UHGV virus genome: UHGV-0197997
Length of the DNA: 52,500 nucleotides
Direction: 5' to 3' (one strand)
Source: a virus
Shown here: in pieces, positions 16,313 to 40,843 of the stretch
Numbering within the stretch: the stretch's first letter is position 1
Layout of the letters: each line of letters starts with the position of its first letter
The notes under the pieces: model-generated
Database searches by the model: none
The model's input: only the letters and a program-made list of their open reading frames with translations
What the model was told of the DNA's origin: nothing
Position numbers and translations under genes: made by a program

Positions 16313-17533
16313 TCAGCCGCCAGAAGCGGTTACATTACCGGTGACAAAAGCCTCCGGCCGATAGACCGCCAACGCCAGACGCTCTTCCGCACGAATGGTG
16401 ACCATGTTTTTAACAAAGTCGTCTTCGTTTTCGGTGGAGAGCAGGACTTCGATATCCATGCGGTCGAAGATTTGCGCCGCCATATTAAACGCCCCGGTCA
16501 GGAAGTTGTTCTGCGCCATGGCCTGTGTTTCCACAACAGGGAGACCCCAGATCCGCGGAACACCACCATTGACCGGCTGCGCGATAATATAGCGGCCTTC
16601 GTTATCTTTGGTCAGCTCGATGCCCGCCCAGTCAATCGGGTTCAGGACAAAACCAGACGCCGGATACTCCGCCAGCACCGCCTGCAGAACAGCCAGACGC
16701 AGACGATCAATCGGCGTAGCGTTGGACAAAGTGAGGGCCGGCGCAAATTCTGTTGCCTGCGGCAGAATCCCGAGGATATTCGCACCGGTACCATCCCCGC
16801 TCAGCAACTGCTGCTCCTCTTTAAAGCGAAGACCATACTGAGCGCGGCCATCGATATAGCTGGCCAGACCGGGCGCATCGTCCAGGATCTGACGGGACGC
16901 TTTAAAATAATGCGCAATGGTACGAACCGGCGCACTTTTCAGCTCAAACTTAATGTCTGATTTTGGCTTCAGGGCACCTTCTGCCACAGCTGCAGCATTA
17001 TTGGTGAACCCCGTTTCCTGAACGAATTCAATACCGTTAGATGCGGTATTACCGGGGATAAGCAGATTACGGATGGTCAGTGTACGTTCCGGCGGGGCGA
17101 TAATGCCCTGAACACGATCGGAGACCACCAGGCTATTGGTTGTGCTCACGCCAGTGCCTGTGGTCGCCGGCACGTTCATAATGTCTTTCTGCTCGAGCTT
17201 TACACGGATGCTCTTGCGGGCCGAGCTGTCCATTCCTTTGAACTCTTCACTTTCGACCACCAGCTCACCGATCGATTTTCGCTGTTGAGGTGTGTCGTTA
17301 TGACGGCGTGCACCTTTTTGCTCCAGCTCAGTAAGGCGTTCTTTCAGCTCGTTGAGTTGGTTCAGACTGTCATCAGTGCGTTCTTTCAGCTCCTGCGATA
17401 CAGTTTGGCCAGACTCCATTTTTTTCTTCACGTCTTCGCCGAAGCTTTTAACCTGCTCCATCACCGCAGAGAGCTGGGTAGAGATTTCGCCAATTGTTTG
17501 TGGCTGATCGTCAGCCGATTTTTTCTGGTACAT
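16313..17533 (-). CDS. Major capsid protein, HK97 family
   Basis: ~400 aa with N-terminal coiled-coil delta-like region and HK97-fold core; follows prohead protease. Confidence 0.9.
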   Translation of the reverse strand: MYQKKSADDQPQTIGEISTQLSAVMEQVKSFGEDVKKKMESGQTVSQELKERTDDSLNQLNELKERLTELEQKGARRHNDTPQQRKSIGELVVESEEFKGMDSSARKSIRVKLEQKDIMNVPATTGTGVSTTNSLVVSDRVQGIIAPPERTLTIRNLLIPGNTASNGIEFVQETGFTNNAAAVAEGALKPKSDIKFELKSAPVRTIAHYFKASRQILDDAPGLASYIDGRAQYGLRFKEEQQLLSGDGTGANILGILPQATEFAPALTLSNATPIDRLRLAVLQAVLAEYPASGFVLNPIDWAGIELTKDNEGRYIIAQPVNGGVPRIWGLPVVETQAMAQNNFLTGAFNMAAQIFDRMDIEVLLSTENEDDFVKNMVTIRAEERLALAVYRPEAFVTGNVTASGG

Positions 17534-17542
17534 ATAAATCCC

Positions 17543-18229
17543 TTAGAGAATTTTGGGGAGTGAAAACTGGCTCAGTTGCTGGCGCATCGCCGCAATAGCC
17601 GCTTTGGTTTCGCCGTCTTCGCCCCCGGACTCACTCCGGTCAAGCAGATAGGACAGCCCGCGGGAGGCGACCGCAGCGGACTGACTTTTCGAGAAACCTG
17701 CCTCTCGCAGGAACTTCTCAAATTCAGGTAAAGAAGGAAGGTCACCGTGTGACAGCTTCGACTTAATGACGTCAATACGCGCATCATCGTTGGCCGGCAC
17801 GGTAACGATGGAGATTTCAACCAGATCGAGCTTCGTTAATGTGCGGATCCGGGTTTTCTCATCGTAATTCGATTCCCGTACGTAATAGCCAATGGAAAGG
17901 CCTGTAATGGCACGGGTTTTCATGCCCCGCCAGGCGGTTTTAGCGTAAGCAGCGTCGTCAAGCCACAAAGCCCCTTCACCAAAAAGCCCATGTTTATCTT
18001 CTTTCAGGGTAGAGATATCCCAGTTCCCTATGGGCTCGCCGGTGCGATGCTGCCAGAGAACAGGGAACGTTCTCCCCTTCGCCCGTGTTTCCTCGATACT
18101 TTCGAGGAATGCGCCCGGCGCCACGACTTCGTTGTAGCTATCCACCACATCGAAGACAGAACCGTACCCAGAAAAAAGGCCGTCATCGTTGACGGCCTTA
18201 ATATCGAAGTCGAATGCCTTTACTTTCAT
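17543..18229 (-). CDS. Prohead protease, HK97 family
   Basis: Between portal and capsid genes; start at ATG (MKVKAFDF) overlapping portal stop as ATGA. Confidence 0.8.
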   Translation of the reverse strand: MKVKAFDFDIKAVNDDGLFSGYGSVFDVVDSYNEVVAPGAFLESIEETRAKGRTFPVLWQHRTGEPIGNWDISTLKEDKHGLFGEGALWLDDAAYAKTAWRGMKTRAITGLSIGYYVRESNYDEKTRIRTLTKLDLVEISIVTVPANDDARIDVIKSKLSHGDLPSLPEFEKFLREAGFSKSQSAAVASRGLSYLLDRSESGGEDGETKAAIAAMRQQLSQFSLPKIL

Positions 18230-28038: not shown

Positions 28039-28114
28039 TGGTGCTGGTTGACGGAATCGAACCACCGACATCCTACTTACAAGGCAGGTGCTCTACCTAC
28101 TGAGCTAAACCAGC
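28039..28114 (-). tRNA. tRNA-Thr (anticodon UGU), phage-encoded
   Basis: Hand-folded cloverleaf: acceptor GCTGGTT/AACCAGC, D-arm GCTC-AGTAGGTA-GAGC, anticodon loop CTTGTAA, T-loop TTCGATT, encoded CCA; T-stem needs two wobble pairs; 5' end overlaps methyltransferase stop by 10 nt. Confidence 0.55.
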
Positions 28115-29154
28115 AAATTGCGCATTTCACTGACCGTCTGTTCAAACCGCTCGGTTTCCAGTTCAACGCCGATTCCACTCCGCCCGAGTAGAGCAGCTTG
28201 CTTTAGTGTGGAACCAGAACCAGCAAAGAAATCAGCTACGACCTCCCCCGGCCGACTGCTTGCAGTAATGATCTGCTGGAGCATATCGGCAGGTTTTTCG
28301 CATGGGTGCTTACCTGGGTAGAACTGAACAGGCTTATGAGTCCACACGTCGGTATACGGCACCGAGACGGAAACACTAAACGGCCTCCGCAGGCAGTGAT
28401 ACTCCTGCTGAAGTTCGCAGTATTTCCGGTTAAGAGATTGCCATGTTGCGACAAGCTGGTGATGGGGCTTAGCAAGTTCGTTTCGTGAGTGTTTATCTCT
28501 GGCAATTTGCTGGAACAACGTCTGCAATTTCAGGTAATCGGCTTCGTTCGGTAACTGCCACTGGCTAAGACCGAACCAGTGAGAAACCATGTTTTTCTTA
28601 CCTGTGGCAACTGTAATTTCTGCTGACGTTACTCCAAGAGATTCTCTGGCTTCCCGGAAATAGGAAATCAGTGGAGTCATGACATGCTGCTTGAGTTCAT
28701 TGCTCTTAGCAGCAAACCCATCATCTTTCGGATTATATGGCCCTTGATAATGATCGGCGAAAATGATGCGCTCCGTCGCAGGGAAATATGAGCGCAGGCT
28801 CTCTTTGCTGCATCCGTTCCAGCGCCCGGAAGGTTTTGCCCAGATAATATGGTTAAGCAGGTTAAAACGCTCGCGGACCAGTATCTCAATGTCCGCCGCC
28901 AGCCGGTGCCCGCAGAAAAGATACATGCTGCCCGAAGGTTTCAAAACCCGCCAGAAGTGGGCCAGACAACTATCGAGCCATCGCAAATAGTCATCATCCC
29001 CATTCCATTGATTGTCCCAACCGTTCGGCTTCACCTTAAAGTAAGGCGGGTCAGTAACGATCAAGTCGATGGAGTTATCTGGAAGCGATGGAAGAAATTG
29101 CAGGCAGTCAGCATTGATTAACTCAATACTGGATATTTTTACAGTATTTTTCAT
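28105..29154 (-). CDS. DNA methyltransferase, beta-class (N6-adenine or N4-cytosine), orphan
   Basis: DPPY motif (LIVTDPPYF) N-terminal to SAM motif DFFAGSGST; no adjacent restriction gene. Confidence 0.8.
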   Translation of the reverse strand: MKNTVKISSIELINADCLQFLPSLPDNSIDLIVTDPPYFKVKPNGWDNQWNGDDDYLRWLDSCLAHFWRVLKPSGSMYLFCGHRLAADIEILVRERFNLLNHIIWAKPSGRWNGCSKESLRSYFPATERIIFADHYQGPYNPKDDGFAAKSNELKQHVMTPLISYFREARESLGVTSAEITVATGKKNMVSHWFGLSQWQLPNEADYLKLQTLFQQIARDKHSRNELAKPHHQLVATWQSLNRKYCELQQEYHCLRRPFSVSVSVPYTDVWTHKPVQFYPGKHPCEKPADMLQQIITASSRPGEVVADFFAGSGSTLKQAALLGRSGIGVELETERFEQTVSEMRNLLV

Positions 29155-29291
29155 AGATCAGTAAGCAGGACTCTGGTAGGCTCACTATGCTTTTGCGCTA
29201 AAGCAGTGGGCCTTGGTTAGCTTGTGACCTCAAGGCATGAGCTGATGGCTGGTTGGGTGCTACAACACCCACCAGCCGCCCATTTCACAGT

Positions 29292-29319
29292 AAAAAGCCG
29301 CCATGGATATTCTGGCGGC
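29292..29319 (-). terminator. Internal terminator in late operon
   Basis: Minus-strand hairpin GCCGCCA-9nt-TGGCGGC followed by TTTTT. Confidence 0.5.
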
Positions 29320-29335
29320 ACGATTAAACTGGCAA

Positions 29336-29668
29336 CTAATTATCTAGTCTCCAGATAGAGTCATCCAATTCAATATGAATGCGCCCATCTCTAACTTCAT
29401 AATCAATCAACCCTGTATCTTCGTGGGAATCATTCATATCCTTGCATCCAGCAAAGAAATCAATTCCAACTTCATATTCAAAGTAATCTCCTCCAATGCT
29501 GGCAACTTCAAATGTACCATCAATAACGGAATATCTGGCATCACCGCCATAACCAGCAAGGAAATAATCTTTGAACAGATGGGAGTGTGACTCCAAAACT
29601 CCTTTAACAGCATCCAGGTTCGCTGGATCAACACCATTTAAATCAATTTCGTAATTTTCAACGCTCAT
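29336..29668 (-). CDS. Hypothetical acidic protein, 110 aa
   Basis: ATG preceded by GAGGTG; visibly AT-rich. Confidence 0.5.
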   Translation of the reverse strand: MSVENYEIDLNGVDPANLDAVKGVLESHSHLFKDYFLAGYGGDARYSVIDGTFEVASIGGDYFEYEVGIDFFAGCKDMNDSHEDTGLIDYEVRDGRIHIELDDSIWRLDN

Positions 29669-29808
29669 TTTTCACCTCTATATCTGATTTAGTGTGAAAA
29701 AATCTTAATCGCTGAAGAGTTATGTCAGAAATTATTTTTAAGTCAGAAACAAAAAAAACTTAAGACATTGATTTAAATAATATTATTTAGAGTTAAAAAC
29801 AGTCCCCA

Positions 29809-30000
29809 TTACTGAGGGCGCTTATAACATCCAAACTCGTATTCTGATAAACCAGCCATCACAAGTTGCGTCAGTATCAACTGGCAGCATTCGCGCGACA
29901 GGTGCGTATTCTGGGCGATCTCCCCAGCCGTTGCTGGTTCGTTGGTTAAAGTGTTGAAAACTGCCCGGGCCGTTTCCGTCATATCCTGCTGATTTAGCAT
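29809..30000 (-). CDS. Hypothetical small protein, 63 aa (first late gene after tR')
   Basis: ATG preceded by AGGAAAAAG; possible winged-helix-like segment. Confidence 0.45.
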   Translation of the reverse strand: MLNQQDMTETARAVFNTLTNEPATAGEIAQNTHLSRECCQLILTQLVMAGLSEYEFGCYKRPQ

Positions 30001-30101
30001 GTCTTTTTCCTATCAAGTTGGCGTGACACACAGATAACTCTGGTCAGCTATGCCAGCAAGAAGTAATTGAAAAAGAAGCGGAATTGCGTGACTTCAGCCC
30101 A

Positions 30102-30127
30102 TAAAAAAACCCGCACATTGGCGGGTT
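30102..30127 (-). terminator. tR'-like terminator downstream of Q
   Basis: Minus-strand hairpin ACCCGC-loop-GCGGGT followed by TTTTTTT. Confidence 0.65.
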
Positions 30128-30139
30128 AATCAACGTTGA

Positions 30140-30225
30140 ACATACAAAGCCCATCGTTATAAAAACAATACCCAATAATTTTGAATATTGCAAGTATCTT
30201 GCTGCTATTTTTCATTAAAATGTAG
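30140..30225 (-). promoter_or_regulatory. Putative late promoter (pR'-like) and Q utilisation region
   Basis: AT-rich segment between Q stop and tR'-like terminator with TTGCAA ... TATTGT candidate hexamers; exact -35/-10 not resolved. Confidence 0.3.
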
Positions 30226-30984
30226 CTATCGTGTCACTTCCTTCAGTTTCTGCTCAGCGAAGGTCTCCTCTTGCCAGCATTTTGTAACCAGAATATTGAT
30301 CACCTCGGCATATCCGCTATACCACTGATAATTGGTCATATCAGGTACCAGCCGTATTACTCGATCTTTTACCAGTGTCGTAGGCAAACGGCTGTAACCC
30401 TTGCCATTACACCGTCCACATAGTTTTTGCACAGGTACTTTATGCAACTCAGTACGTTTTTTATCGAGTACGAGGCCGCGTCCACGGCAGTCCCTGCACG
30501 CTGTACTGATCCAGCCCTTCCCTGCGCAATGACTGCATGTTGACTCAACCTCTTCAGGTTTAATCGTAGGTGGGATGCCTTTCACTCCAGGGTGTTTAAC
30601 AACGTCCTTTACCTCCCGAATGACTCGCTGCCCATTGCATTGTGGGCATGTGCTCTTGCTGGCAGCTGAACGCGCATAATCATTGAAAGCAAAAGTTGCT
30701 AAGCAAGAAGCCATTTCAATACGAATACTTTCGGAAAGTTTGGACATTACAGGGTTCTTTAATGTCATCGCGTAATTGGTTAGTTGCTCGATAGCCGGCT
30801 CGGGATCCTGAATACCCATTTTTGCGAGAAACAAATTGAAGCCAAATCGAGCCTGGGCAGACGCCATACCTTGTGCTGCCATAACATCCGTAATCGTTAG
30901 TGAAGTGCCCCCAGTAGCCGGAGTTTCATCATTAAGCTTTGGTGACTTTGGGGAATAAAATTTCGGTAATGATTCAAGTTTCAT
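30226..30984 (-). CDS. Q: Late antiterminator Q (Cys-rich zinc-binding type)
   Basis: Start MKLESLPKFYSPKSP with SD GGAG; Cys-rich CPQC...CSHC...CRDC...CGRC; upstream of late promoter/terminator. Confidence 0.65.
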   Translation of the reverse strand: MKLESLPKFYSPKSPKLNDETPATGGTSLTITDVMAAQGMASAQARFGFNLFLAKMGIQDPEPAIEQLTNYAMTLKNPVMSKLSESIRIEMASCLATFAFNDYARSAASKSTCPQCNGQRVIREVKDVVKHPGVKGIPPTIKPEEVESTCSHCAGKGWISTACRDCRGRGLVLDKKRTELHKVPVQKLCGRCNGKGYSRLPTTLVKDRVIRLVPDMTNYQWYSGYAEVINILVTKCWQEETFAEQKLKEVTR

Positions 30985-31002
30985 GTTAAGCACTCCATAC
31001 AC

Positions 31003-32061
31003 TCATGCTTTTAAAATGACGCCAATACCCATAACCCGATCCAGAAAACGAGCCCACAGCTCTAACTGAGTGCCGTATTTCTGTTCGAATACTGAGACGT
31101 CGGCATGTAATTCATCGTGATGCACTCTGCACAGCGGTATCACGAAGAGATCATGGGCCTTTGTTGCGGTACCTCCCAGACCATGCCCTATTATATGGTG
31201 TGGATCGTCTGCGGGTTGCCTACAGCATTCACATGGCTGAGTTTTTACCCACCGGGTATATTGCGGACATTCCCAACGCCGGCGCTTAGGGCGGAGCATA
31301 AACGACTCAGGGCTTTCAGGATCAATTCGAAGACTAAGAATCGGCTGAACTTCTTGCGGGAACTGGGGATCGATGTACCTGGTGTCGTCTTTAATCCAGG
31401 CGCGCTCAACAAGATCCTGGAGCATTTCAGCCGCAGGAAATGACGGGACGATATCGCTTTCTTTGTAGACCGAGAGAAAAGGCTCTACGGGTAGCCTTAA
31501 GGCATGTTGAGCCATCGTCTCTGTAATCGCATCTGCAATGCCGGATTTGACGGCCCACCAGCAAAGCTCAGCCATAGATAACTCGCGCTCTTTGTTATAT
31601 CCCAGGCCGATCAGCACGGTGTCTATTACCCACAGGACCACATTCTGGTAGGCCAGCTCGGAGAGCGTCTCTGTCGTTTGTTCACGTAATTCATTATCGC
31701 AATGCCAGCAAACAACTAATGCGCCCGGAGGATGGCGCATAGTGACGAATTCATGGTGATGGTAATGTGAATGCGGGTATTGGCATTGTTTAACGTTATG
31801 CTTCAGCCACGCCTCAAGCGCGTTAATGCCACCAGCAGCATTAATGACCCTTTCATCCCTCATGAAAAAGCGAAGAATATCAAGCTCTGCAAGGGGCTGA
31901 CGTACATCAGGGATCCGGCCCGTTGGAATAGTTTTCATCTTTTCAGGCTGACTTTCTATCAACACGCGACCACCAGCAAAAAGAGGCATGAGTTCGCGGC
32001 CAGGCTTAAACAGCACAACGCCAAGACGTGACACTATTTCCGGAGTTAGTAGCGCTCGCAC
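31003..32061 (-). CDS. DUF968-like protein with C-terminal HNH-type Cys/His motif
   Basis: C-terminal CPQYTRW...CECC...HHIIGHG...CRVHHDELH; position in nin-like region upstream of Q; family name from memory. Confidence 0.45.
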   Translation of the reverse strand: MRALLTPEIVSRLGVVLFKPGRELMPLFAGGRVLIESQPEKMKTIPTGRIPDVRQPLAELDILRFFMRDERVINAAGGINALEAWLKHNVKQCQYPHSHYHHHEFVTMRHPPGALVVCWHCDNELREQTTETLSELAYQNVVLWVIDTVLIGLGYNKERELSMAELCWWAVKSGIADAITETMAQHALRLPVEPFLSVYKESDIVPSFPAAEMLQDLVERAWIKDDTRYIDPQFPQEVQPILSLRIDPESPESFMLRPKRRRWECPQYTRWVKTQPCECCRQPADDPHHIIGHGLGGTATKAHDLFVIPLCRVHHDELHADVSVFEQKYGTQLELWARFLDRVMGIGVILKA

Positions 32062-32069
32062 AATACCCC

Positions 32070-32624
32070 CTAAACAGTGAGATCTTTAAGCTTCTGCACG
32101 GCCTTTCCAACATCAGCCATAGCATCGACGAACTCGTCAAACTTCCTGCTGGCCATCCCATACGCCTGGAGAATTTCCAACTTCAAGGGATCGAGCTGCT
32201 TCTTAATTTCTGCACGATCCCCGGCTTTTTTCTCCGCTTCCTCTGCCGCTTTGATCAAGGCGTCAGCCTGTTTACGCAATGCTTCCGGAGTTACTTCGAG
32301 CTGTTTATTCATTTTGCATTCCATCGTCGGCTGAGGAGGTGTCATAACGGGCGCCACAGAGTTGTGACCATATTTCGGGTGGTGCAAGGTTGTAGACCTT
32401 CCATCATCGATTACGCAGAGCATCCCGCTTTCCCGGATAATTTCGATCAGGGTCTCTTTGTCTTTACGATTGAGGCCACTGTACGCCGCCACTTTGTGTG
32501 TCAGATGGGTTAGCGTGGCGCCCTCGGGTTGCCTTTCAACAAAACGCTTAACCCGGGAAAGAACAGGTTGCAGGTGCGGGGGAGTCATTCTCATTTTCAT
32601 CCCCTTATTGCGTGGCAATGCCAA
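32070..32624 (-). CDS. Hypothetical protein
   Basis: ORF in nin-like region; C-terminal coiled-coil-like segment. Confidence 0.4.
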   Translation of the reverse strand: MALPRNKGMKMRMTPPHLQPVLSRVKRFVERQPEGATLTHLTHKVAAYSGLNRKDKETLIEIIRESGMLCVIDDGRSTTLHHPKYGHNSVAPVMTPPQPTMECKMNKQLEVTPEALRKQADALIKAAEEAEKKAGDRAEIKKQLDPLKLEILQAYGMASRKFDEFVDAMADVGKAVQKLKDLTV

Positions 32625-33447
32625 GTAGCTTCAAAAGCTCAGGAAACTTCGATTCGAAGAAGTGCGGCTGCATCTCACGTGGATTTGCCGGGCTGGTGAT
32701 GTTTTTCCCATACAGGCAACCTCTTGCCGTAACAGACCAGAATCTTTTTACTCCATTGATACCCGTTCGGCTGCGGCGCTCCTTCTGCTCGACTATGCCG
32801 TGGCCTGCCATAATGTGATAAGCCTGGTTCGCGGTCATTCTGATGTTATTAGCTTTAAGTAAAGCGCTGAGAGAAAGTGTTGGCCTGCTTGAACCGTCCT
32901 GCGCGCCAGCTGGCGCATCAATGGCATAAGAGGGCATTATATCAGGCAACCCGGCCACCAGCTGAAGCTTCTGATATGCCCCGAGCTTTGACGAATTGGA
33001 GAGATTGAGCATTTTGGCTGCTGACTCCAGAAGGATCACACCAGCCTGGATGCGATCGGCATTGACGGTTGCAGCGCCGGCAGTGTGCAGCGCGTCAAAC
33101 GTTCTGATGACCTTCAGATTAAAAACAGCGCTGATCCACATCGCGTAGGCATACACCAACTCACGGCAAACATATGTGCCTTGCTCATTGCCTCCACGGA
33201 TGACACTTACAGGTTCTGATATATCCGAGTTGCTATTTTGCAACTCGCCTATCAATTGCGCAGTTTGTTCGTTGCGCAGCCAGAATGCTGGCTTGTGGCG
33301 GTCAAGGGAACCGGACACACGATGGAGATCATTTAGGCAATAGCGACCAAGGACATCACGACGAACAGAAATTCCATCAATGACAAAAAAAGAGTGATTA
33401 TTGGATGCAGCAGCACCCATGACGTGGTTAGTCATAGCTTTCTCCAT
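32605..33447 (-). CDS. KilA-N domain protein (antirepressor-like)
   Basis: N-terminal FVIDGISVR...KPAFWLRNEQTAQLI matches KilA-N pattern. Confidence 0.6.
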   Translation of the reverse strand: MEKAMTNHVMGAAASNNHSFFVIDGISVRRDVLGRYCLNDLHRVSGSLDRHKPAFWLRNEQTAQLIGELQNSNSDISEPVSVIRGGNEQGTYVCRELVYAYAMWISAVFNLKVIRTFDALHTAGAATVNADRIQAGVILLESAAKMLNLSNSSKLGAYQKLQLVAGLPDIMPSYAIDAPAGAQDGSSRPTLSLSALLKANNIRMTANQAYHIMAGHGIVEQKERRSRTGINGVKRFWSVTARGCLYGKNITSPANPREMQPHFFESKFPELLKLLGIATQ

Positions 33448-33523
33448 ACATTTTTATGTAACGAAGGGCCTGCACGCCCGTTTCGTTTGCACACCTTGAG
33501 ATTAATGCTAAGTTGCATAGACT

Positions 33524-33925
33524 TCAACCTACCACTGAACAAACATCCAGCGCTTTTCTATAAGCCGATATAGTGATTTCTACCCGCCCTCCTTTAACAT
33601 TCTCGCCCCACTCTATAGCCATGCGTTTTACCTGGCTGTCGTCCTCCCAGATCCCGGCATAGGTCAAAGCATCGAGCAGGGCCTTGTTGTAATTATCCAG
33701 GTCTCGCCGGCGGTAATCCGGCGGGTAAAGAATAATTTCTACAGCTGCTGGTGCCGATGAAGGCTTTGGTATATCTCGCAATTGCTCAATGACCGCTGCC
33801 CGCACCGCATGCTTAAACTTGCGGCCTGCCGCACTGACAAGAAGCTTGCCTTTTGCGGGCCCCTTATTTGGGGATCGCCAATAGGCATTCACGCTGGGCG
33901 GAAAAGGAAGTAAAAATTTCATCAC
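33524..33925 (-). CDS. rusA: Holliday junction resolvase RusA
   Basis: N-terminal PPSVNAYW motif and ~130 aa size typical of RusA. Confidence 0.8.
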   Translation of the reverse strand: MMKFLLPFPPSVNAYWRSPNKGPAKGKLLVSAAGRKFKHAVRAAVIEQLRDIPKPSSAPAAVEIILYPPDYRRRDLDNYNKALLDALTYAGIWEDDSQVKRMAIEWGENVKGGRVEITISAYRKALDVCSVVG

Positions 33926-34395
33926 TCCTCCAGTACCATTTTAAGTTCGAAAGGCAAGTCGCCACCGCAATAGCAGAGTTGCCCCAGCTCTGACATGAGG
34001 CTCCATAGGGTCATTGACGAATAGCCATTTTCGTCAGTCGCCGGCGGCTCAAATTCACCAAATATTCCTGGCGCACGAGCTCGATTTTCATCGTGTTGGG
34101 CCTGCATAAACCTCAGGGAGATATCATTCAACTTCACCTTTACGATGCTGTTGAGGTTAACTGAAACCTCCCTGGTTAAAAGCGAAGTGGTGATGCTGAT
34201 ACCGCGGGAAACCCCGCGGGTAATCTTGATGGCCCCTTTTCTCTCCAGCGCCTTGAGGTGGGTTGCCGCCGCATTGGGGGACCGGCACCCCAACATGCCG
34301 GTCAGTTCGTAGGTGGTAGGCGGGAAACCATGCTTACGTTGGTACTCGATCAGGAGGTTCAGAACCTCCTGCTGCCTGAGAGTTAACTTCATCAT
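33922..34395 (-). CDS. LexA N-terminal-like DNA-binding protein without S24 peptidase domain
   Basis: MKLTLRQQEVLNLLIEYQRKHGFPPTTYELTGMLGCRSPNAAATHLKALERKGAI closely resembles LexA DNA-binding domain; C-terminal half lacks Ser/Lys peptidase motifs. Confidence 0.55.
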   Translation of the reverse strand: MMKLTLRQQEVLNLLIEYQRKHGFPPTTYELTGMLGCRSPNAAATHLKALERKGAIKITRGVSRGISITTSLLTREVSVNLNSIVKVKLNDISLRFMQAQHDENRARAPGIFGEFEPPATDENGYSSMTLWSLMSELGQLCYCGGDLPFELKMVLEE

Positions 34396-36479
34396 GCTGC
34401 CCGCTCCTGTTTGTTAACGCACATTTCTGGCAGATTGGCCCTAACCAGCGCCTCAGCGAACGGCGGCGGCACGGCGTTTCCGCAGCGCGCAACCTGCTTG
34501 TCCTTCGAATACTTCACGCCGCGGTAGTCCCGGTCGATGATGTACCACTCAGGGAAGCCCTGCGCGCGATAGAGCTCATGCGGTTGCAGCATGCGCATCC
34601 CGATATCAACAATTCGGAACGTAACGCCGTCAATATCCACCAGCCCGGTGCTGTCCTCCCCGCAGTATTCCCGCAGAAATGCCAGCACCTGCTGAGCGCG
34701 CTCTTCGTCGTAGTCCTCGACCGCCAGTGTCGTTTTAACCTCTCCAACATGCTGGCCCCCGGCGGTAATTGTCGGCATCGGCTCGTCAGCGCGCTGACCA
34801 TCACGACAGGTCCCACGCAGTTTGACCAGGTGGGATGAGACTATTGCGGCATCGGCTTTAGTGGTCATTGTCTGCAGCGGCTCGCTAACATCACGCGGGC
34901 GGCTCTGCCCTGCTCGCCCACCAACGCCAACAACCTGGGCTGTAACCAGTGCATGATGATCAATCGTCGTCACCGAGTGGGCGGGCTCACCCAGTCCTAC
35001 GCCGGCGCCCTGATAATTCCCGCCGTAGTGTTTAGCCAGGAACGCCCCGACAACAGCATGCTTTCCGCCACCAGCAACAACGGTACCCAGCGGTTTGTCC
35101 AGCCCTGGCACGCGAGGTGCCTGCCCTGGTCGTTCTCCGTATCCCATCTGAATCAACGTCGGCACAACCAGTTGCGATTTACCGCCGCCGCCGGCGGTGA
35201 TTGTTGCACTGGGCTCGTCGGCGCGATGACCGATGCTTGCGCCAAACTGGCGCGCAATGACCGGCGCAACGATACAGGCGCGGGACTCTTTCAGGATGGT
35301 GTGAGCAGGTTTATCCAGTGGCCGTGGCTTAGCCTGGTACTCGCTGCCACCATTTCCGGCCAGGAACGGCGCCAGCTCAGCTTCAACGACACCCAGTGCA
35401 TGACCATTCCCGCCCGGGCGTTTTGACGTGCCGGCGGTCACCGTAGGTACCGGGTCGGTAACTGGCTGCCCGGTGGCACCGGTGCGGAATTTTGTCAGGT
35501 GAGGTACCGCGATTGCGTACCCATGAGTTTTGGTAATGGTCTGTAGAGGATCGGCCAGGGCCTGCCCCCGAAAACAGTCGTATTTGCCACGGGTGGTTGT
35601 GTGGTTGCATTTCACAATGAATGGATCCGCGCTGTCGATAACGAAACGCTGAATGCCGCGGGCTATGCGTTTGAGCGTATTCTCTGCCAACGGCTTTTTG
35701 CGGTCGAATATCGACCGCGCGGAAATAGTCCAGTCGATGCATTCCGCCGCGGTGCGAAACGGCGCCAGCTTGCCTGCCTGCACCGCCGGCGATTTCGGAT
35801 CCCCGTGTGTAGCCTCCGGCCAGACAATAGGCTGGTCATCACGACGCATCACCATGAAGAATCTTTTACGGATGGTTGGGGTTCCAAGGTCGGATGCACG
35901 CAGTTCACGGCAATCCAGATCGTAACCAAGCCCCGAAATCAGCCGCTGAGCCTGCTCGCTTTCCAGCGAGAGCTCCAGAAATTCGCAGCACTCTACCAGC
36001 GCAGGATGATCAGCAGGAATGCCAGTTGTTAGCATGCCGACAAATGCCCGGAATGTTTCGCCAACGCGCGCAGGGTCTGGGCGCATTTCTGCCGCCAGCA
36101 GCGGGCCCCACGTTTTGAACTCCTCCACGTTCTCCAACATCATCACCCGTGGGCCAACATCCAGGGCCCAACGAATGACAATCCACGCCAGCCCACGGAT
36201 GGCTTTTTCTACAGGCTTCGCCCCTTTCGCCTTCGAGAAGTGGCGACAATCTGGCGAAAACCAGGCGAGACCTACAGGTTTGCCGCTGGTGGCAGCTGCA
36301 GGAGAAACATCAAACACGCTTTCGCAATAGTGCAATGTGTCAGGATGGTTAGTGCGGTGCATGGCCACGGCGTTCTCGTCGTGGTTAATAGCAATATCAA
36401 CGCTGCGCCCGATCGCCATTTCGATCCCGGTTGATGCCCCGCCGCCGCCAGCAAAATTATCAACAATCAGCTCACGCAT
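34392..36479 (-). CDS. DNA cytosine-5 methyltransferase-like, 695 aa, with repeated TAGG-containing internal motifs
   Basis: Motif I FAGGGGASTG, ENV motif, motif IV-like SPDCRHFS (DC instead of PC), C-terminal RCGNAVPPPFA; four internal repeats of the TxTAGG type. Confidence 0.75.
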   Translation of the reverse strand: MRELIVDNFAGGGGASTGIEMAIGRSVDIAINHDENAVAMHRTNHPDTLHYCESVFDVSPAAATSGKPVGLAWFSPDCRHFSKAKGAKPVEKAIRGLAWIVIRWALDVGPRVMMLENVEEFKTWGPLLAAEMRPDPARVGETFRAFVGMLTTGIPADHPALVECCEFLELSLESEQAQRLISGLGYDLDCRELRASDLGTPTIRKRFFMVMRRDDQPIVWPEATHGDPKSPAVQAGKLAPFRTAAECIDWTISARSIFDRKKPLAENTLKRIARGIQRFVIDSADPFIVKCNHTTTRGKYDCFRGQALADPLQTITKTHGYAIAVPHLTKFRTGATGQPVTDPVPTVTAGTSKRPGGNGHALGVVEAELAPFLAGNGGSEYQAKPRPLDKPAHTILKESRACIVAPVIARQFGASIGHRADEPSATITAGGGGKSQLVVPTLIQMGYGERPGQAPRVPGLDKPLGTVVAGGGKHAVVGAFLAKHYGGNYQGAGVGLGEPAHSVTTIDHHALVTAQVVGVGGRAGQSRPRDVSEPLQTMTTKADAAIVSSHLVKLRGTCRDGQRADEPMPTITAGGQHVGEVKTTLAVEDYDEERAQQVLAFLREYCGEDSTGLVDIDGVTFRIVDIGMRMLQPHELYRAQGFPEWYIIDRDYRGVKYSKDKQVARCGNAVPPPFAEALVRANLPEMCVNKQERAA

Positions 36480-37422
36480 GGCTCACCCCCTGCATGCTTT
36501 CAACCAGTCCACCAGCAATAGCGATGATTTCACTGGTGGGCATACGCTCCAGCCAGAGCTGGTTAATATGTGCTTTCAGCCTGTTTTGATGGGACAACTC
36601 CATCCCTTCAGCTCCTTCAACCTGTCGAAACAACAGCCCTACTTCCAATGGCCAGATACGTGATTCCGTCGCCGGTAATTCCACAGGCGCTGCAGGTGGT
36701 TCTACTGCCGCCGCCGGCGCTGTTACTTGTGCTGGAATATTGCCAACAGCAAACTGCGCCAGCCTCATGAATGCATGACCCTTAGCTTCCAGATCGGACC
36801 GGTGGATATAGCTGAAACGCTCGCCTCGCCATGACTTATCAAACACAACAATGGCACCAGCGAAAAATGCGCTGGTGGGCTTTTGCTTATCATCAGCAGG
36901 GATAAACCACGAAGGTAGATCGAATCCAATTCGACCACGAATAAACATGATGTGATCAGCATCTTCCGGCCACCATGTTTCGCTTGTTGCTGACTTCACA
37001 AGGTAAATGTAGCGACCGCCCTTTTCACGCTGCTCAGTGGTATAGTTCATGATATGAGCCATGCCGGTGATGGCTTGTTTTTCATGGTACTGCGAGCGAC
37101 TGTACGGCGGGTTAGCAAAGGCCGCGCCGCCGAGTTCTACCAGGCGACCTGACCAGTCCTGCGTCAGCGCATTGTCTTCAGCGGTGTACCATGCCGGGCA
37201 TTTTGCGTTGCTTTCGTCAGCGAACAGATCCAGAACCAACGGACCGAACATCGCGTTGATCCCCCAGAACAGTAGATCCGGAGTACGCCATTGATCCCCT
37301 ACATCTTTCAGGTAATGGGCGCTGCACTGGCGCTGTTCTTCAAGAGCCAGGCAATAAGGGCTGACAGTCTTAGCTTCGGTATTTTCTTCTTCGATCATCA
37401 TGTCCTGCACTTCCTGGATCAT
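36472..37422 (-). CDS. DNA N6-adenine methyltransferase (phage Dam-like)
   Basis: NPPY motif (FANPPYSRS); overlaps C5-MTase start. Confidence 0.7.
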   Translation of the reverse strand: MIQEVQDMMIEEENTEAKTVSPYCLALEEQRQCSAHYLKDVGDQWRTPDLLFWGINAMFGPLVLDLFADESNAKCPAWYTAEDNALTQDWSGRLVELGGAAFANPPYSRSQYHEKQAITGMAHIMNYTTEQREKGGRYIYLVKSATSETWWPEDADHIMFIRGRIGFDLPSWFIPADDKQKPTSAFFAGAIVVFDKSWRGERFSYIHRSDLEAKGHAFMRLAQFAVGNIPAQVTAPAAAVEPPAAPVELPATESRIWPLEVGLLFRQVEGAEGMELSHQNRLKAHINQLWLERMPTSEIIAIAGGLVESMQGVSHA

Positions 37423-37591
37423 AGATTTCCCCTGCGCTGGTCTGCTCGTACAAGTGCCCTCAGAAACCAGTAACGACGGTCAAAGCTAAACAGGCCCCTG
37501 GTGAGTAACGCAAAATTTCTGCGGAATAAAACATCGTGTCGCCACCAGGTTCGCCAGTGATTGAGCCGGAGGTGGCGGCGGATCGTTCTAA

Positions 37592-38053
37592 TTAATCGGA
37601 GCACAGGTCACCTCCGCAGTAATTACCTGCCAGCATAGAAATTCCGCTGGAATTCATCCCACTTTTGGCATTGCGTACACACTGATTTTTCATCCGCATA
37701 TAACGCTCTCTGGATTTAACGCTGCAGTTTGAATCGCACAGCTGCTGCCAGACCGTCGCCGCCCGGCGGAAGTAGCGCCGGCTTTCCAGGCTCCTCGCCA
37801 CCAGTTCCAGATTGCGCATTGCTTCGGAGGTATCCTCTGGCTGATTTTGATCATTTCCGTCAGGGTTACCGGCGACACGATAACGAAATACACTCGACGT
37901 TTGGGCGCTCGCCAGACGGCCCTCGTAATACAGGCGGTGTACCGCGTTCTTCACAGACATGGGGTTGCACTGAGGGAATGCTGCAATGATGTCCCGCATC
38001 ATCACCCCTGGGTTTTTCTCGATAAACTCGAATGCCGATTTCGCAATAATCAT
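37592..38053 (-). CDS. Hypothetical protein downstream of replication initiator
   Basis: Start taken at ATG (MIIAKSAFEF) overlapping upstream stop; no ATPase motifs. Confidence 0.4.
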   Translation of the reverse strand: MIIAKSAFEFIEKNPGVMMRDIIAAFPQCNPMSVKNAVHRLYYEGRLASAQTSSVFRYRVAGNPDGNDQNQPEDTSEAMRNLELVARSLESRRYFRRAATVWQQLCDSNCSVKSRERYMRMKNQCVRNAKSGMNSSGISMLAGNYCGGDLCSD

Positions 38054-38961
38054 CCCCGGAACCCCGCTGGAATTGTGTTTTGTACCGGACTTACTGAATT
38101 GATATCTCGTGGCTTGTTTTTGTCCCAAGCCTCTCTTGGCGGCCGGCCTTTAGCATCCCAGCGGATAGCGCTTTGCAGATAGCCTTCGAATTTTTTTGGG
38201 CCAAAGAGCGTCTCAGGTCGCATGTACTGGTATTGCTCGTCGTTTTCATGCCAGTGCTCATGCTTCAGGTCGATAACCAGTTTCAGGTCGCTGACGGCAT
38301 GTCCATCGCGTAGACGGGCACGGATGTTTTCCAGGGAGGATTTTGATTTCTGGAAACGGGAACCGCTGACCTGGTTCAGGTGGGCCAGAACTTCGATCGC
38401 ATGATCGGTAATAACCACTTCAGGATCCGTCTTATCGTCGGGATCCGCAGGAACCCGACAAGAAGGTTTTTTAGATGACGGATCTAATGACGGATCTAAT
38501 GACGGATCGCCTTCAACCATTGAGGGGTCCCCCGTCAATATTTGAGGTGGTGCAGACCCATTATTTGAGGCCTCAGATTTTGACCCTTCAAATTTTGAAC
38601 CCTCAATTTCTGAGGCCTCAAATTTTGATTGCTCCTTAGGAGGTGAATAGAAAAGTTTTGCCTCTGCAGCTGCACGCTCCAGCATGTCTACGTTGAGTTT
38701 GTAGACGTTCGAGTTATTCTTCCCACCAACCCGGCGCTCTTGTTTCTTCAGCCACCCTTTTGCTTCCAGCTTTTTAATAGCACTGCGTACGGTGTTCTCA
38801 CTCTTAGCACCGATCTGGCGCTGAATTGTCGTTACCGCGGGCCAGGACACGCCTTCATCGTTACTGAAGTCAGCCAGGCGGGCCATGACCGCTATTTCGG
38901 ATATGATCAGGCCTTTGAAAGCACATGCTTCCCAAACCAGACCGTGCAATTTACTGCTCAT
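38050..38961 (-). CDS. Replication initiator (O-like; N-terminal winged helix, conserved phage C-terminal domain)
   Basis: C-terminal LNQVSGSRFQ...IRARLRDGH...LKLVIDLKHEHW...YMRPETLFGPKKFEGY pattern; low-complexity repeat linker; SD GAGGG. Confidence 0.7.
   Translation of the reverse strand: MSSKLHGLVWEACAFKGLIISEIAVMARLADFSNDEGVSWPAVTTIQRQIGAKSENTVRSAIKKLEAKGWLKKQERRVGGKNNSNVYKLNVDMLERAAAEAKLFYSPPKEQSKFEASEIEGSKFEGSKSEASNNGSAPPQILTGDPSMVEGDPSLDPSLDPSSKKPSCRVPADPDDKTDPEVVITDHAIEVLAHLNQVSGSRFQKSKSSLENIRARLRDGHAVSDLKLVIDLKHEHWHENDEQYQYMRPETLFGPKKFEGYLQSAIRWDAKGRPPREAWDKNKPRDINSVSPVQNTIPAGFRG
38468..38630. repeat. Iteron-like direct/palindromic repeats inside replication gene (candidate ori)
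   Basis: 3 x 12-nt tandem repeat at 38468-38505 and ~5 copies of a TCAAA(A)TTTGA(G/A)G-like motif at ~21-bp spacing (38540-38630). Confidence 0.45.
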
Positions 38962-39130
38962 GGCTGCCCTCTACTTCCCTGAACTTACGTTTGAACTGAT
39001 CGAGTGGGCTAAAGCACTCATGGGGATACCCTTCTCGCAGGAAGATGACACGCTGCGTTTCTGGCTCCCAGCGGATGACCTTGACGGGCTTACCGTAGTG
39101 GTCTTTGAACTTCCGGTTAACTTCTCGCAT
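38951..39130 (-). CDS. Small ORF upstream of replication initiator (frame uncertain)
   Basis: 59-codon ORF with AAGG upstream; alternative frame ORF 38971-39318 in track; cannot decide without homology. Confidence 0.25.
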   Translation of the reverse strand: MREVNRKFKDHYGKPVKVIRWEPETQRVIFLREGYPHECFSPLDQFKRKFREVEGSHEQ

Positions 39131-39302
39131 AACGCCTTAGCCCTCCGGTTAAAGACCCCCACAACTCCACGCGCCCTACTGTGGTTACATTCGACCCACT
39201 TTCCGCCTACCATGCGCTCATACCGAAACGACGAAACACCCGGGACCGGGTACATCCGTAGTTGCGGTAAGTGAAGATTTACGATTAAATTGCTCATGCG
39301 GA

Positions 39303-39854
39303 TCATTTCTCCATACACGTTGATTTATCTGCCACGACGCCCGGAGCTGCACACTCGCGGGCGTCACTCTTTTCTGGCTGACAGAAGACGCGGAAAAGCA
39401 ACGTCAGATGTTCCTGCCATTTCGCCATCACCTGATAGCTGTTCTCCTCAATCTGCTCGCGTTCGGCCTGGTCAATAACACCGTCAGCTGTAGCTTTACG
39501 GAGATATTGCGAGTGCTTTCCGATCCACTCGATAGACTCCATCAGGCGATGGTTAATATCGGCGTTGTCCACATCATCAATATCTGCCAGCGGTACAAAG
39601 ACCCCGTTCGAGTGGCGCGCTATCGCATTGGCGATATGATTTGACCCACCAGCCCGCTGCAGGACCATTGCCCATCCGAGAGGAAAAATCTGATCTCCAT
39701 CGGCACGTAAGCGGTTAAACAATGCGTTTTCAGTAACACCCAGCCATTCCGCTGCTTCTACATAGCCGCCGTCCAAATCAGTGATCGTTTTTTTAATCGC
39801 AGCTACCAGCCAAGCCGGCTGCTTATCAACTTTCCATTCTGGTTCTATACCCAC
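39303..39854 (-). CDS. Regulatory protein at cII position (CP76/YdaT-like by memory)
   Basis: First gene after cro-like gene in early-right operon. Confidence 0.4.
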   Translation of the reverse strand: MGIEPEWKVDKQPAWLVAAIKKTITDLDGGYVEAAEWLGVTENALFNRLRADGDQIFPLGWAMVLQRAGGSNHIANAIARHSNGVFVPLADIDDVDNADINHRLMESIEWIGKHSQYLRKATADGVIDQAEREQIEENSYQVMAKWQEHLTLLFRVFCQPEKSDARECAAPGVVADKSTCMEK

Positions 39855-39882
39855 GGCTTACCCCCTACCTCTGTGGTTTCTG

Positions 39883-40113
39883 TTACACCCCTGAAGCGCT
39901 ATCGTTCTGATTAGCACCCTCGCCATAGAGCAACCAATGAGGATCGCAATGCAGGGCTGAAGATAATTCAATGATGTAACGGGGCCTCTTTGTTAAACCC
40001 GCCTCGATCGCTTGTAATGACTGCTGGGTCATTCCGACCAATTCAGCCAATTGCGCTTGTGAGAGATTCATCTCTTCACGTTTATTCTTTAATCTTTGAG
40101 AAATTGATTCCAT
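39883..40113 (-). CDS. cro: Cro-like HTH-XRE repressor
   Basis: 76 aa HTH (LSQAQLAELVGMTQQSLQAIE); divergent from cI across operator region; SD GGAGG. Confidence 0.75.
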   Translation of the reverse strand: MESISQRLKNKREEMNLSQAQLAELVGMTQQSLQAIEAGLTKRPRYIIELSSALHCDPHWLLYGEGANQNDSASGV

Positions 40114-40122
40114 AACACCTCC

Positions 40123-40181
40123 ACAGTTTTATCTGTATTTTTGAACAGATACTACTGTTTGTCAATCACAGTTTAAACTGT
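40123..40181. promoter_or_regulatory. OR-like operator cluster: three ACAG-N6-CTGT palindromes
   Basis: Sites at 40123-40136, 40145-40158, 40168-40181 (22-23 bp spacing) between cro and cI. Confidence 0.65.
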
Positions 40182-40210
40182 GACCATGAGGCCATGGGAA
40201 TGGAGGAGCT

Positions 40211-40843
40211 ATGAGCCTTGCAGAACGCGTAAAGCAAAAAAGAATCGAACTTGGTCTTACTCAAGAGCAAGCCGCTGAAAAGGCAGGAATAAGGCAACAA
40301 TCATGGGCCAGCATTGAAGATGGAAAAACTAAAAAGCCTCGCAACATTGTAGGAATAAGCAAAGCACTTAAGTGCGACCCAACATGGTTGATGAACGGTG
40401 GGCCTTTTATGGCTCTTGCCGATGTGAATTCAAGGAAAGTACCTTTGATCAGTTACGTCCAGGCTGGGGCATTAGCAGAAAAACACCCAATTGATGCATT
40501 TGATGGTAGCTTCGAATACATCATGACAGACCTTGATATTTCTGAGTTTACTTTTGCACTAAGGATAGAAGGTGATTCAATGGAGCCTGACTTTAAAGAA
40601 GGCGACATTATCATTGTCGATCCAGAGTTAGAGCCCGTTCCGGGCGAGTTTGTTGTTGCTAAAAATGGTGATAATGAGGCAACTTTTAAAAAGTACCGTC
40701 CTACATTTACCGATATTTCAGGCCGCCAGCAATATGAACTGGTCCCCCTTAATGACGACTACCCCACCATCAATAGCTCTGAATGCCCGTTGAAAATTAT
40801 CGGCGTAATGGTCGAACATAGAATTTACAGGCGAAAAAGGTAA
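40211..40843 (+). CDS. cI: CI-like repressor (HTH-XRE plus S24 LexA-type peptidase domain)
   Basis: N-terminal HTH; C-terminal GDSMEP motif and downstream Lys region typical of S24 autopeptidases. Confidence 0.85.
   Translation: MSLAERVKQKRIELGLTQEQAAEKAGIRQQSWASIEDGKTKKPRNIVGISKALKCDPTWLMNGGPFMALADVNSRKVPLISYVQAGALAEKHPIDAFDGSFEYIMTDLDISEFTFALRIEGDSMEPDFKEGDIIIVDPELEPVPGEFVVAKNGDNEATFKKYRPTFTDISGRQQYELVPLNDDYPTINSSECPLKIIGVMVEHRIYRRKR

Follow-up and report, generated by a model that had tools for sequence, protein, structure and literature searches.

The question raised by this locus is whether a phage gene encodes a protein that carries the DNA-binding domain of LexA without its autopeptidase domain, and whether such a protein may occupy LexA boxes without being cleavable and thereby modulate the host SOS response or prophage induction, as the original prediction proposed from the sequence alone. 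The window, which is the whole 52,500-nucleotide stretch of virus genome UHGV-0197997 that was analysed, represents a lambdoid prophage of the Klebsiella type, with Klebsiella phage Kp4866-6 as its best phage match. A public database entry, DAT42148.1 ('SOS regulatory protein LexA [Caudoviricetes sp.]'), is identical to the protein encoded by the gene, which is hereafter called the window protein. The gene and its parts are located as follows.

33922..34395, minus strand: whole open reading frame, LexA DNA-binding domain plus small phage domain (157 residues plus stop, ATG start; open reading frame list)
34192..34395, minus strand: LexA-type winged helix-turn-helix domain, residues 1-68 (PF01726; 1LEA/3JSO; phrog_362)
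34240..34281, minus strand: recognition helix SPNAAATHLKALER, residues 39-52 (LexA alignments; contact residues from PMC11442139 and PMC3091678)
34171..34191, minus strand: interdomain linker, residues 69-75 (low model confidence, variable in the family alignment)
33925..34170, minus strand: small alpha/beta domain in place of S24, residues 76-157 (82 residues; family search, model and profiles)

Residues 1-65 of the window protein match the 65-position Pfam LexA_DNA_bind family (PF01726) over its full length with an E value of 3.5e-20 and a score of 72 bits, the cut-off being 23.7 bits. The runner-up helix-turn-helix family, HTH_Crp_2, gives an E value of only 0.15, and therefore a generic winged helix is excluded for this region. 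Residues 2-68 are aligned without gaps with the DNA-binding domain of E. coli LexA (1LEA and 3JSO; E value of 4e-16, range about 1e-15 to 1e-16), with about half of them identical, and residues 1-74 match the phrog_362 'transcriptional repressor' profile with an E value of 5.6e-31. The full-length model of the window protein is of moderate confidence (pLDDT 72), with the wing region (residues 60-72) below 50. These results bear out the prediction that the N-terminal 70 or so residues resemble the LexA winged helix, and the alignment to LexA indicates that this similarity is specific to LexA and goes beyond that of winged helices in general. As judged from these scores, the observation of a LexA-type head is correct and far beyond chance.

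The S24 domain, the fold of which is mostly beta, serves both dimerisation and self-cleavage in LexA. No S24 peptidase is detected in the window protein by Pfam, either in the whole protein at E<=1 or in residues 76-157 at E<=10, and PF00717 gives no match. The NCBIfam lexA equivalog TIGR00498 is matched only at model positions 1-76 of 203, and the score of 64 bits falls short of the cut-off of 110.95. When the profile of the C-terminal family is compared with a LexA profile by hhalign, the probability is 0.5%, and the predicted C-terminal fold is beta-alpha-beta-alpha-beta. The VAAG cleavage motif and the Ser119/Lys156 dyad are invariant among the full-length LexAs aligned, and no counterparts of the Ala84-Gly85 cleavage site, Ser119 and Lys156 are present in the alignment with the window protein. 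Thus, the C-terminal half lacks S24 motifs as predicted, and no cryptic S24 domain is found by profile search. The prediction that the protein is not cleavable is upheld in its structural half, because cleavage by the LexA mechanism is precluded by the lack of both the protease and the Ala-Gly site. Since the self-cleaving tail is replaced, DNA damage cannot switch the window protein off in the way that it switches off LexA. The window protein is, by its sequence, a LexA DNA-binding domain without the autopeptidase, predicted to be uncleavable by the LexA mechanism. In comparison with host LexA (TIGR00498), its DNA-binding domain is homologous, but the S24 domain, the Ala-Gly site and the Ser/Lys dyad are missing; it is not LexA itself, because it has neither the protease nor the cleavage site and scores below the equivalog cut-off.

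The domain that stands in place of S24 is modelled with a pLDDT of 94.2. No relative of this domain is found in the PDB by structure search, and no family is found for it in Pfam and NCBIfam. Its own family comprises 509 representative proteins at E<=0.001, which are mostly stand-alone proteins of approximately 85 residues from many phages, and its profile matches, phrog_29443 (in its C-terminal part; E value of 1.1e-38) and phrog_5792 (E value of 3.2e-6), are both unassigned in function. Two family alignments give the common motif N.N..VKVKL..G...L...H.EL ... P..DE.GY...LW.LM..FG....G...PFE, and structural matches in BFVD reach a TM score of 0.92. Other fusion partners of the domain are the Lar restriction-alleviation domain, coiled coils and a tandem copy of itself. 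The neighbourhoods of two stand-alone relatives contain only small unannotated early genes. Very long proteins that matched the C-terminal query in multiple repeats turned out to be thyroglobulin or Ig-repeat proteins and were rejected as false positives. Hence the original prediction was correct in denying S24 to the C-terminal half, but overlooked that this half is an independent and widespread phage domain.

Several database records of this family are unusual. P0281, P0242 and P0245 are stand-alone C-terminal-domain proteins without any LexA domain, for example from Vibrio phage 137E35-1, and nevertheless bear the name 'repressor LexA' or 'SOS-response repressor and protease LexA'; the annotation seems to have spread to them from the fusion proteins. 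P0048 (Klebsiella quasipneumoniae, 133 residues) has lost the LexA head through a natural deletion, which leaves the C-terminal domain joined to the Dam-type methylase N-terminus, and this protein carries a methyltransferase annotation.

The order of genes on the minus strand is cro, cII-like, replication, PerC-like, Dam-type methylase, C5 methylase, LexA-head gene, rusA, KilA-N, a 184-residue open reading frame, DUF968/HNH and Q. The elements of this region are as follows.

40211-40843, divergent from the cro operon: cleavable CI (HTH_3 plus S24)
39883-40113, minus strand: cro
36472-37422, minus strand: Dam-type methylase
34392-36479, minus strand: C5 methylase
34404..34408, minus strand: AGGAG Shine-Dalgarno sequence, 9-13 nucleotides 5' of the ATG, within the end of the C5 methylase gene
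34392..34395, minus strand: ATGA, in which the C5 methylase stop overlaps the LexA-head gene start
33920..33925, minus strand: GTGATG at the LexA-head gene stop and the rusA start
33524-33925, minus strand: rusA (RusA, PF05866)
30226-31002, minus strand: Q

The TGA codon of the LexA-head gene (33922-33924) lies between, and overlaps, two alternative rusA starts, GTG at 33923-33925 and ATG at 33920-33922. The overlaps of starts and stops, together with the AGGAG sequence, indicate that the gene lies inside the early rightward (nin) operon as a cistron whose translation is coupled to that of its neighbours. From this position in the operon we infer that the gene is expressed once repression is lifted and is silent in the lysogen. 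The methylase-X-rusA order, where X is the LexA-head gene, is found in 51/51 related viral contigs, a co-occurrence count that, like the others across loci, takes no account of shared ancestry. These contigs, obtained by a pattern scan of viral contigs, constitute the usable related set (L081-L131). A scan of genome contigs with an alignment pattern (HLKALE[RK]KG) yielded 80 true lexA loci (L001-L080), which were discarded, and single-protein patterns gave no matches in genome contigs. The cI/cro genes are of the window type in 20/51 loci, and at least two types of Q occur. Because the cI/cro and Q modules change around the gene, its partner site is not specific to the immunity or Q type.

The exact protein and its close relatives are found in prophages of Klebsiella and Raoultella, and fusions of the same architecture, with C-terminal domains only 44-52% identical, are found in those of Citrobacter/Salmonella and Cronobacter/Franconibacter. 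Pairwise dN/dS values against 36 distinct homologues range from 0.09 to 0.30 and are similar for the two halves. The LexA-head gene is real, and both of its halves are under purifying selection. These data bear on the reading that the gene is a decaying or mis-called host lexA remnant, or a true LexA, to which database names such as 'SOS-response repressor and protease LexA' point. This reading is hardly credible and is refuted by the lack of a protease domain, by dN/dS values of 0.1-0.2 in both halves, and by the conservation of the length (157-158 residues) and position in the 51 loci and in the prophages of five genera, Klebsiella, Raoultella, Citrobacter, Salmonella and Cronobacter.

The prophage also contains three orphan DNA methylases, which are of the N6/N4 type (28105-29154), the C5 type (34392-36479) and the Dam type (36472-37422). 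The C5 methylase, of 695 residues, is matched by Pfam at its two ends only and thus has a long internal insert.

The slot of the LexA-head gene is also occupied in other phages. SfV, mEp460 and cdtI encode a LexA-head protein of 108 residues between the Dam-type methylase gene and rusA, and SfIV encodes one in the same slot with a PerC-like upstream gene. tblastn matches under the annotations 'LexA' and 'N-6-adenine methyltransferase' suggest that a 108-residue protein occupies this slot in SfII and many Stx2a and Stx2c phages as well. The 108-residue proteins (SfV orf42, mEp460 gp46 and SfIV gp43; PHROG 362) share with the window the arrangement methylase-X-rusA-KilA-N-DUF968-Q, are 57-59% identical to the window protein over residues 1-72, and, like it, lack Glu44 and Arg28. 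They differ from it in retaining Glu45, where the window protein has Thr, and in having a short helical tail of approximately 35 residues that is unrelated to its 82-residue domain. A literature search found no experimental paper on lambdoid LexA-head proteins. By gene order and homology, the nin region of SfV-like and Stx phages thus has a conserved gene, of which the window protein represents one tail variant. The original prediction recognised the LexA look-alike, but not that it is one form of such a gene.

These relatives are also relevant to the possibility that the head is a mere tether and that the active part is the C-terminal domain, which would be delivered to LexA-type sites or to DNA generally, for example to act against a host repair, replication or restriction factor. 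The frequent occurrence of this domain by itself and its fusion to several unrelated partners are consistent with this possibility, as are the same-slot homologues with a different tail, which indicate that the tail is exchangeable. However, an exchangeable tail equally fits a simple dimerisation role, no member of the C-terminal family has a known function, and the defence-system models give no match. We regard this possibility as quite unlikely. The reading considered below is instead that the window protein itself binds LexA-type operators, for which the residues that contact DNA are informative.

In LexA, CTGT is read mainly by S39, N41, A42 and E45 (PMC11442139, a secondary source on the LexA-DNA crystal structure), and E44 is also counted among the DNA contacts (PMC3091678). 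[quoted passage not shown] Alignment with LexA shows that S39, P40, N41, A42 and A43 are kept in the window protein and that three contact residues are replaced (R28T, E44A and E45T). The residues of the window protein at the contact positions, including T28, A44 and T45, are almost invariant in its own family. Because R28, E44 and E45 are replaced, a specificity for the SOS box identical to that of LexA is not assured. Among nine truncated phage homologues aligned, S39 is conserved in 9/9, N41 in 8/9 and A42 in 9/9, despite about 45-60% divergence elsewhere. Glu44 is found in 0/9 (A, Q, H, G or V instead) and Arg28 in 1/9 (position 28 being T, N, R, I or Q), position 45 is T, E, L or D, and all four primary base-contact residues of LexA, E45 included, are kept in 4/9 truncated subfamilies. 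Among the full-length LexAs aligned, Glu44 is present in 9/11 and Arg28 is nearly invariant. We read this pattern to mean that the part that reads the TGT core has probably been retained, while two acidic residues and one basic residue at its edge have consistently been lost. It is compatible with binding to an SOS-like half-site, with altered affinity or with an altered preference for the outer bases. The absence of Glu44 (9/9) and of Arg28 (8/9) is itself a consistent signature of the protease-less LexA-head forms.

The free N-terminal domain of LexA binds SOS boxes and represses in vivo unless it is removed by ClpXP (PMC10584840). Neher et al. 2003, as cited in PMC10584840, report that latent ClpX-recognition signals become exposed when LexA is cleaved and that ClpXP clears the fragment. 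This N-terminal fragment (residues 1-84) resembles the window protein in being a LexA DNA-binding domain apart from S24. The ClpX signal reportedly consists of the new C-terminal residues (...VAA84). Unlike the LexA fragment, the window protein ends with ...MVLEE after a folded domain, and it differs at R28, E44 and E45.

The only characterised truncated phage LexA homologue is GIL01 gp6, which binds GaCACAn-nTGTGaC and activates a late promoter (PMC6182141). By description, gp6 and the window protein are alike in that each is a phage-encoded LexA winged helix without S24; gp6 is expressed early in lytic growth (PMC6182141), and the window gene lies in an early operon. However, gp6 is essentially a DNA-binding domain alone, whereas the window protein has an additional folded domain of 82 residues. 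Furthermore, gp6 is an activator with its own operator in a Gram-positive tectivirus (Bacillus thuringiensis), whereas the window protein is encoded in a lambdoid nin operon and is derived from an enterobacterial CTGT-class LexA. Another protein of this virus, the small GIL01 gp7, changes how LexA operators are occupied and thereby affects a co-resident prophage as well as the SOS response of the host (PMC6182141, PMC9700832). Its analogy to the window protein is functional only, because gp7 binds LexA itself, has no DNA-binding domain and has no homology to the window protein. By its predicted domains, the window protein belongs to the loosely defined truncated phage LexA homologues, and databases already list its sequence family as 'LexA family protein'. 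It differs from gp6 and the 108-residue proteins in that it contains a folded domain of a phage family that is widespread and has no name.

The precedent of gp6, a truncated LexA homologue with a private palindrome and late-promoter activation (PMC6182141), raises the possibility that the window protein is a phage transcription factor of the same kind, the head of which has drifted to an operator of its own phage, so that the host SOS regulon is not meaningfully affected. The change of three contact positions in the window protein fits this possibility, and the variation of positions 28 (T/N/R/I/Q), 44 (A/Q/H/G/V) and 45 (T/E/L/D) between subfamilies, while host LexA is constant, suggests diversified specificity. 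However, the start of the recognition helix (S39, N41 and A42) is conserved rather than diversified, the retention of all four primary base-contact residues in 4/9 subfamilies argues against such drift, and the variation in the immunity and Q modules is independent of the LexA-head gene. In addition, the early and nin regions contain no conserved candidate palindrome. In positions 26000-49700 (early, nin and immunity regions), no xTGT-N7-9-ACAx palindromes are found beyond two coding CTGT-N7-ACAG sequences and the OR sites; TGT-Nn-ACA counts over all loci are not enriched at N8; and an inverted-repeat scan of 29000-40250 gives the origin iterons, the OR operators and an in-gene palindrome, but no shared operator. 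We consider a private operator of this kind, the main rival to our preferred reading, rather unlikely. The binding of LexA-type operators remains our preferred reading, and two sites in the window are relevant to it.

40133..40148, no strand assigned: perfect CTGT-N8-ACAG between cro and cI, overlapping the -10 of pR
29127..29146, no strand assigned: strongest SOS-type box TACTGGATATTTTTACAGTA, at +8..+27 of the N6/N4 methylase open reading frame downstream of Q

The region between cro and cI (40121-40185) contains three ACAG-N6-CTGT CI/Cro operators (40123-40136, 40145-40158 and 40168-40181), which are 22-23 bp apart. The site at 40133-40148 was considered as a dedicated target and rejected, because it is a by-product of two adjacent operators, composed of the right half of the first and the left half of the second, and follows the cI/cro type (20/51 loci); it is probably not a target tied to the LexA-head gene. 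Since this CTGT-N8-ACAG overlaps the -10 of pR, host LexA might touch the cro/cI switch.

Two other symmetrical sequences lie within genes. A 30-nucleotide imperfect inverted repeat with iteron-like TTTGAGGCCTCA units is located at 38563-38623, inside the replication gene, and is probably the phage origin. A perfect 21-nucleotide palindrome, CAGGAGGTTC-T-GAACCTCCTG, is located at 34351-34371, in codons 9-15 of the LexA-head gene. Most homologues retain it, the subfamily with 75% identity has lost it, and one double change, GTT>GTC with AAC>GAC, which causes N13D, leaves the palindrome intact. This palindrome might conceivably be an RNA hairpin or a DNA site.

The search of the window for SOS boxes, which the original prediction proposed, gives one strong site, the box at 29127-29146. 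It scores 17/20 against the consensus TACTGTATATATATACAGTA in whole-window scoring, where the next best CTG-N10-CAG site scores 12/20; sites as good as this are expected by chance at about 0.003 per window by our own estimate. The N6/N4 methylase gene that contains it lies after Q, pR' and tR'. The box is present in 37/37 related loci with the N6/N4 methylase, and also in mEp460, SfV, Stx2a phages, phiP27, phiNP, LLS, Flotzy, Eeyore, Hafnia phage yong2 and a Providencia phage. Neither the ACTGT arm nor the CAGT of the opposite arm varies across the phages of E. coli, Shigella, Citrobacter, Klebsiella, Hafnia and Providencia, except for A or C where the window departs from ACAG. The 8-bp spacer varies, and so do the encoded residues (K/N/I, I/M/L and S/N). 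The combination of constant arms with a variable spacer and variable residues indicates selection on a DNA element and suggests that the box is a LexA operator embedded in the coding sequence. No sigma-70-like promoter is found 5' of the box on the same strand by a simple scan.

This box is not confined to phages with the LexA-head gene. It is present without the gene in phiNP, LLS, Flotzy, Eeyore, phiP27 and Stx2a EH2201, and the gene is found in about 33/60 methylase-leader records by hand comparison among the matches listed. This distribution indicates that the box is primarily a host-LexA site and provides no evidence of a dedicated pair. Most simply, therefore, the box would be a site for host LexA, which the phage protein may share.

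Other SOS boxes and conserved elements are seen in the related loci. The methylase-gene box lies just upstream of tRNAs and stx2A in Stx2 phages, and further positions of the box are 1660 in L137, 1645 in L138 and 1654 in L139, with others in L140-L147. The non-coding leader of the late methylase gene (29155-29335, minus strand) is about 80-88% conserved across many phages and contains the hairpin-forming stretches GGCTGGTGGGTG...CACCCAACCAGCC and TGCTTTAGCGCAAAAGCA; Rfam gives no match to this conserved leader. In Shigella phage SfIV (L136, 4765-4784), where rusA is frameshifted, a 17/20 SOS box, TACTGTATTTATGAACAGTA, separates rusA from a KilA-N-type gene, about 100 bp 5' of the ATG of the latter. 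This box follows the LexA-head gene closely on its downstream side and may point to an antirepressor-like gene under LexA control. One related prophage (L089) contains, at 16950-17653, an inserted pair of dinI-like and umuD-like genes, which are divergent around two SOS boxes (18/20 and 15/20) and lie beside a resolvase gene.

The computed properties of the locus are the identity of the LexA domain, the lack of the protease, purifying selection, the position in the operon, the gene order and the strong SOS-type box. To these we add, tentatively and as something short of probable, the proposal that the window protein is a RecA-insensitive binder of LexA-type operators, in which the dimerisation role of S24 is replaced and which re-occupies SOS-type boxes. 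The DNA target, the oligomeric state, the direction of regulation and the biological benefit that we infer would be as follows. The protein would be produced from the early rightward (pR/nin) transcript after CI repression is lifted, with its translation coupled to that of the methylase and rusA. Its N-terminal winged helix would read a LexA-like half-site, with S39, N41 and A42 reading the TGT core, and the unrelated small phage domain would supply dimerisation or a partner contact in place of S24. After host LexA is destroyed, the phage protein would occupy LexA-type operators and re-impose repression despite DNA damage. The candidate operators are the host SOS boxes and the phage box at the late-region methylase gene.

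This proposal is plausible because the free LexA N-terminal domain still represses (PMC10584840), because tectiviruses alter LexA-operator occupancy by gp7 (PMC6182141, PMC9700832), and because the core reading residues S39, N41 and A42 are conserved. The position in an early lytic operon and the one strong, conserved SOS-type box plausibly count for it as well. On the other hand, R28T, E44A and E45T, which include the loss of a base-specific contact at E45, would count against SOS-box binding, and the analogy of gp6, which binds its own operator and activates transcription (PMC6182141), would count against the reading of SOS boxes. The C-terminal domain could also impose a different dimer geometry and thereby change the half-site spacing. 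The functional half of the original prediction, that the protein occupies LexA boxes and modulates SOS or induction, is thus plausible.

In a stronger form of this proposal, the window protein would be a damage-proof substitute for LexA. After induction or infection, it would re-close the host SOS boxes, the LexA-controlled genes of co-resident prophages and colicin plasmids, and the late methylase gene of the phage itself while RecA is still active, and the fold of the C-terminal domain would be a new one that serves dimerisation or acts as an effector. We consider this form unlikely. If it is true, the host SOS programme and rival mobile elements would be shut down during lytic growth.

The label 'SOS-response repressor and protease LexA' in databases is wrong for many LexA-head proteins, because they contain no protease. 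The C-terminal family is large and unnamed and has a confidently predicted fold with no solved relative, and its fusion to a DNA-binding domain provides one route to the study of its function. Prophages of Klebsiella, Raoultella, Citrobacter, Salmonella, Cronobacter, E. coli and Shigella, Stx2 phages among them, commonly encode protease-less LexA-head proteins. Should these proteins occupy SOS-type operators, the response of lysogens to DNA-damaging antibiotics and the competition between prophages would be altered, and the timing of late genes near stx may be changed as well. A damage-proof substitute for LexA, if it exists, would, together with the 108-residue relatives in the Stx2-phage slot, represent a general, unstudied layer of SOS control in the lambdoid phages of pathogens.
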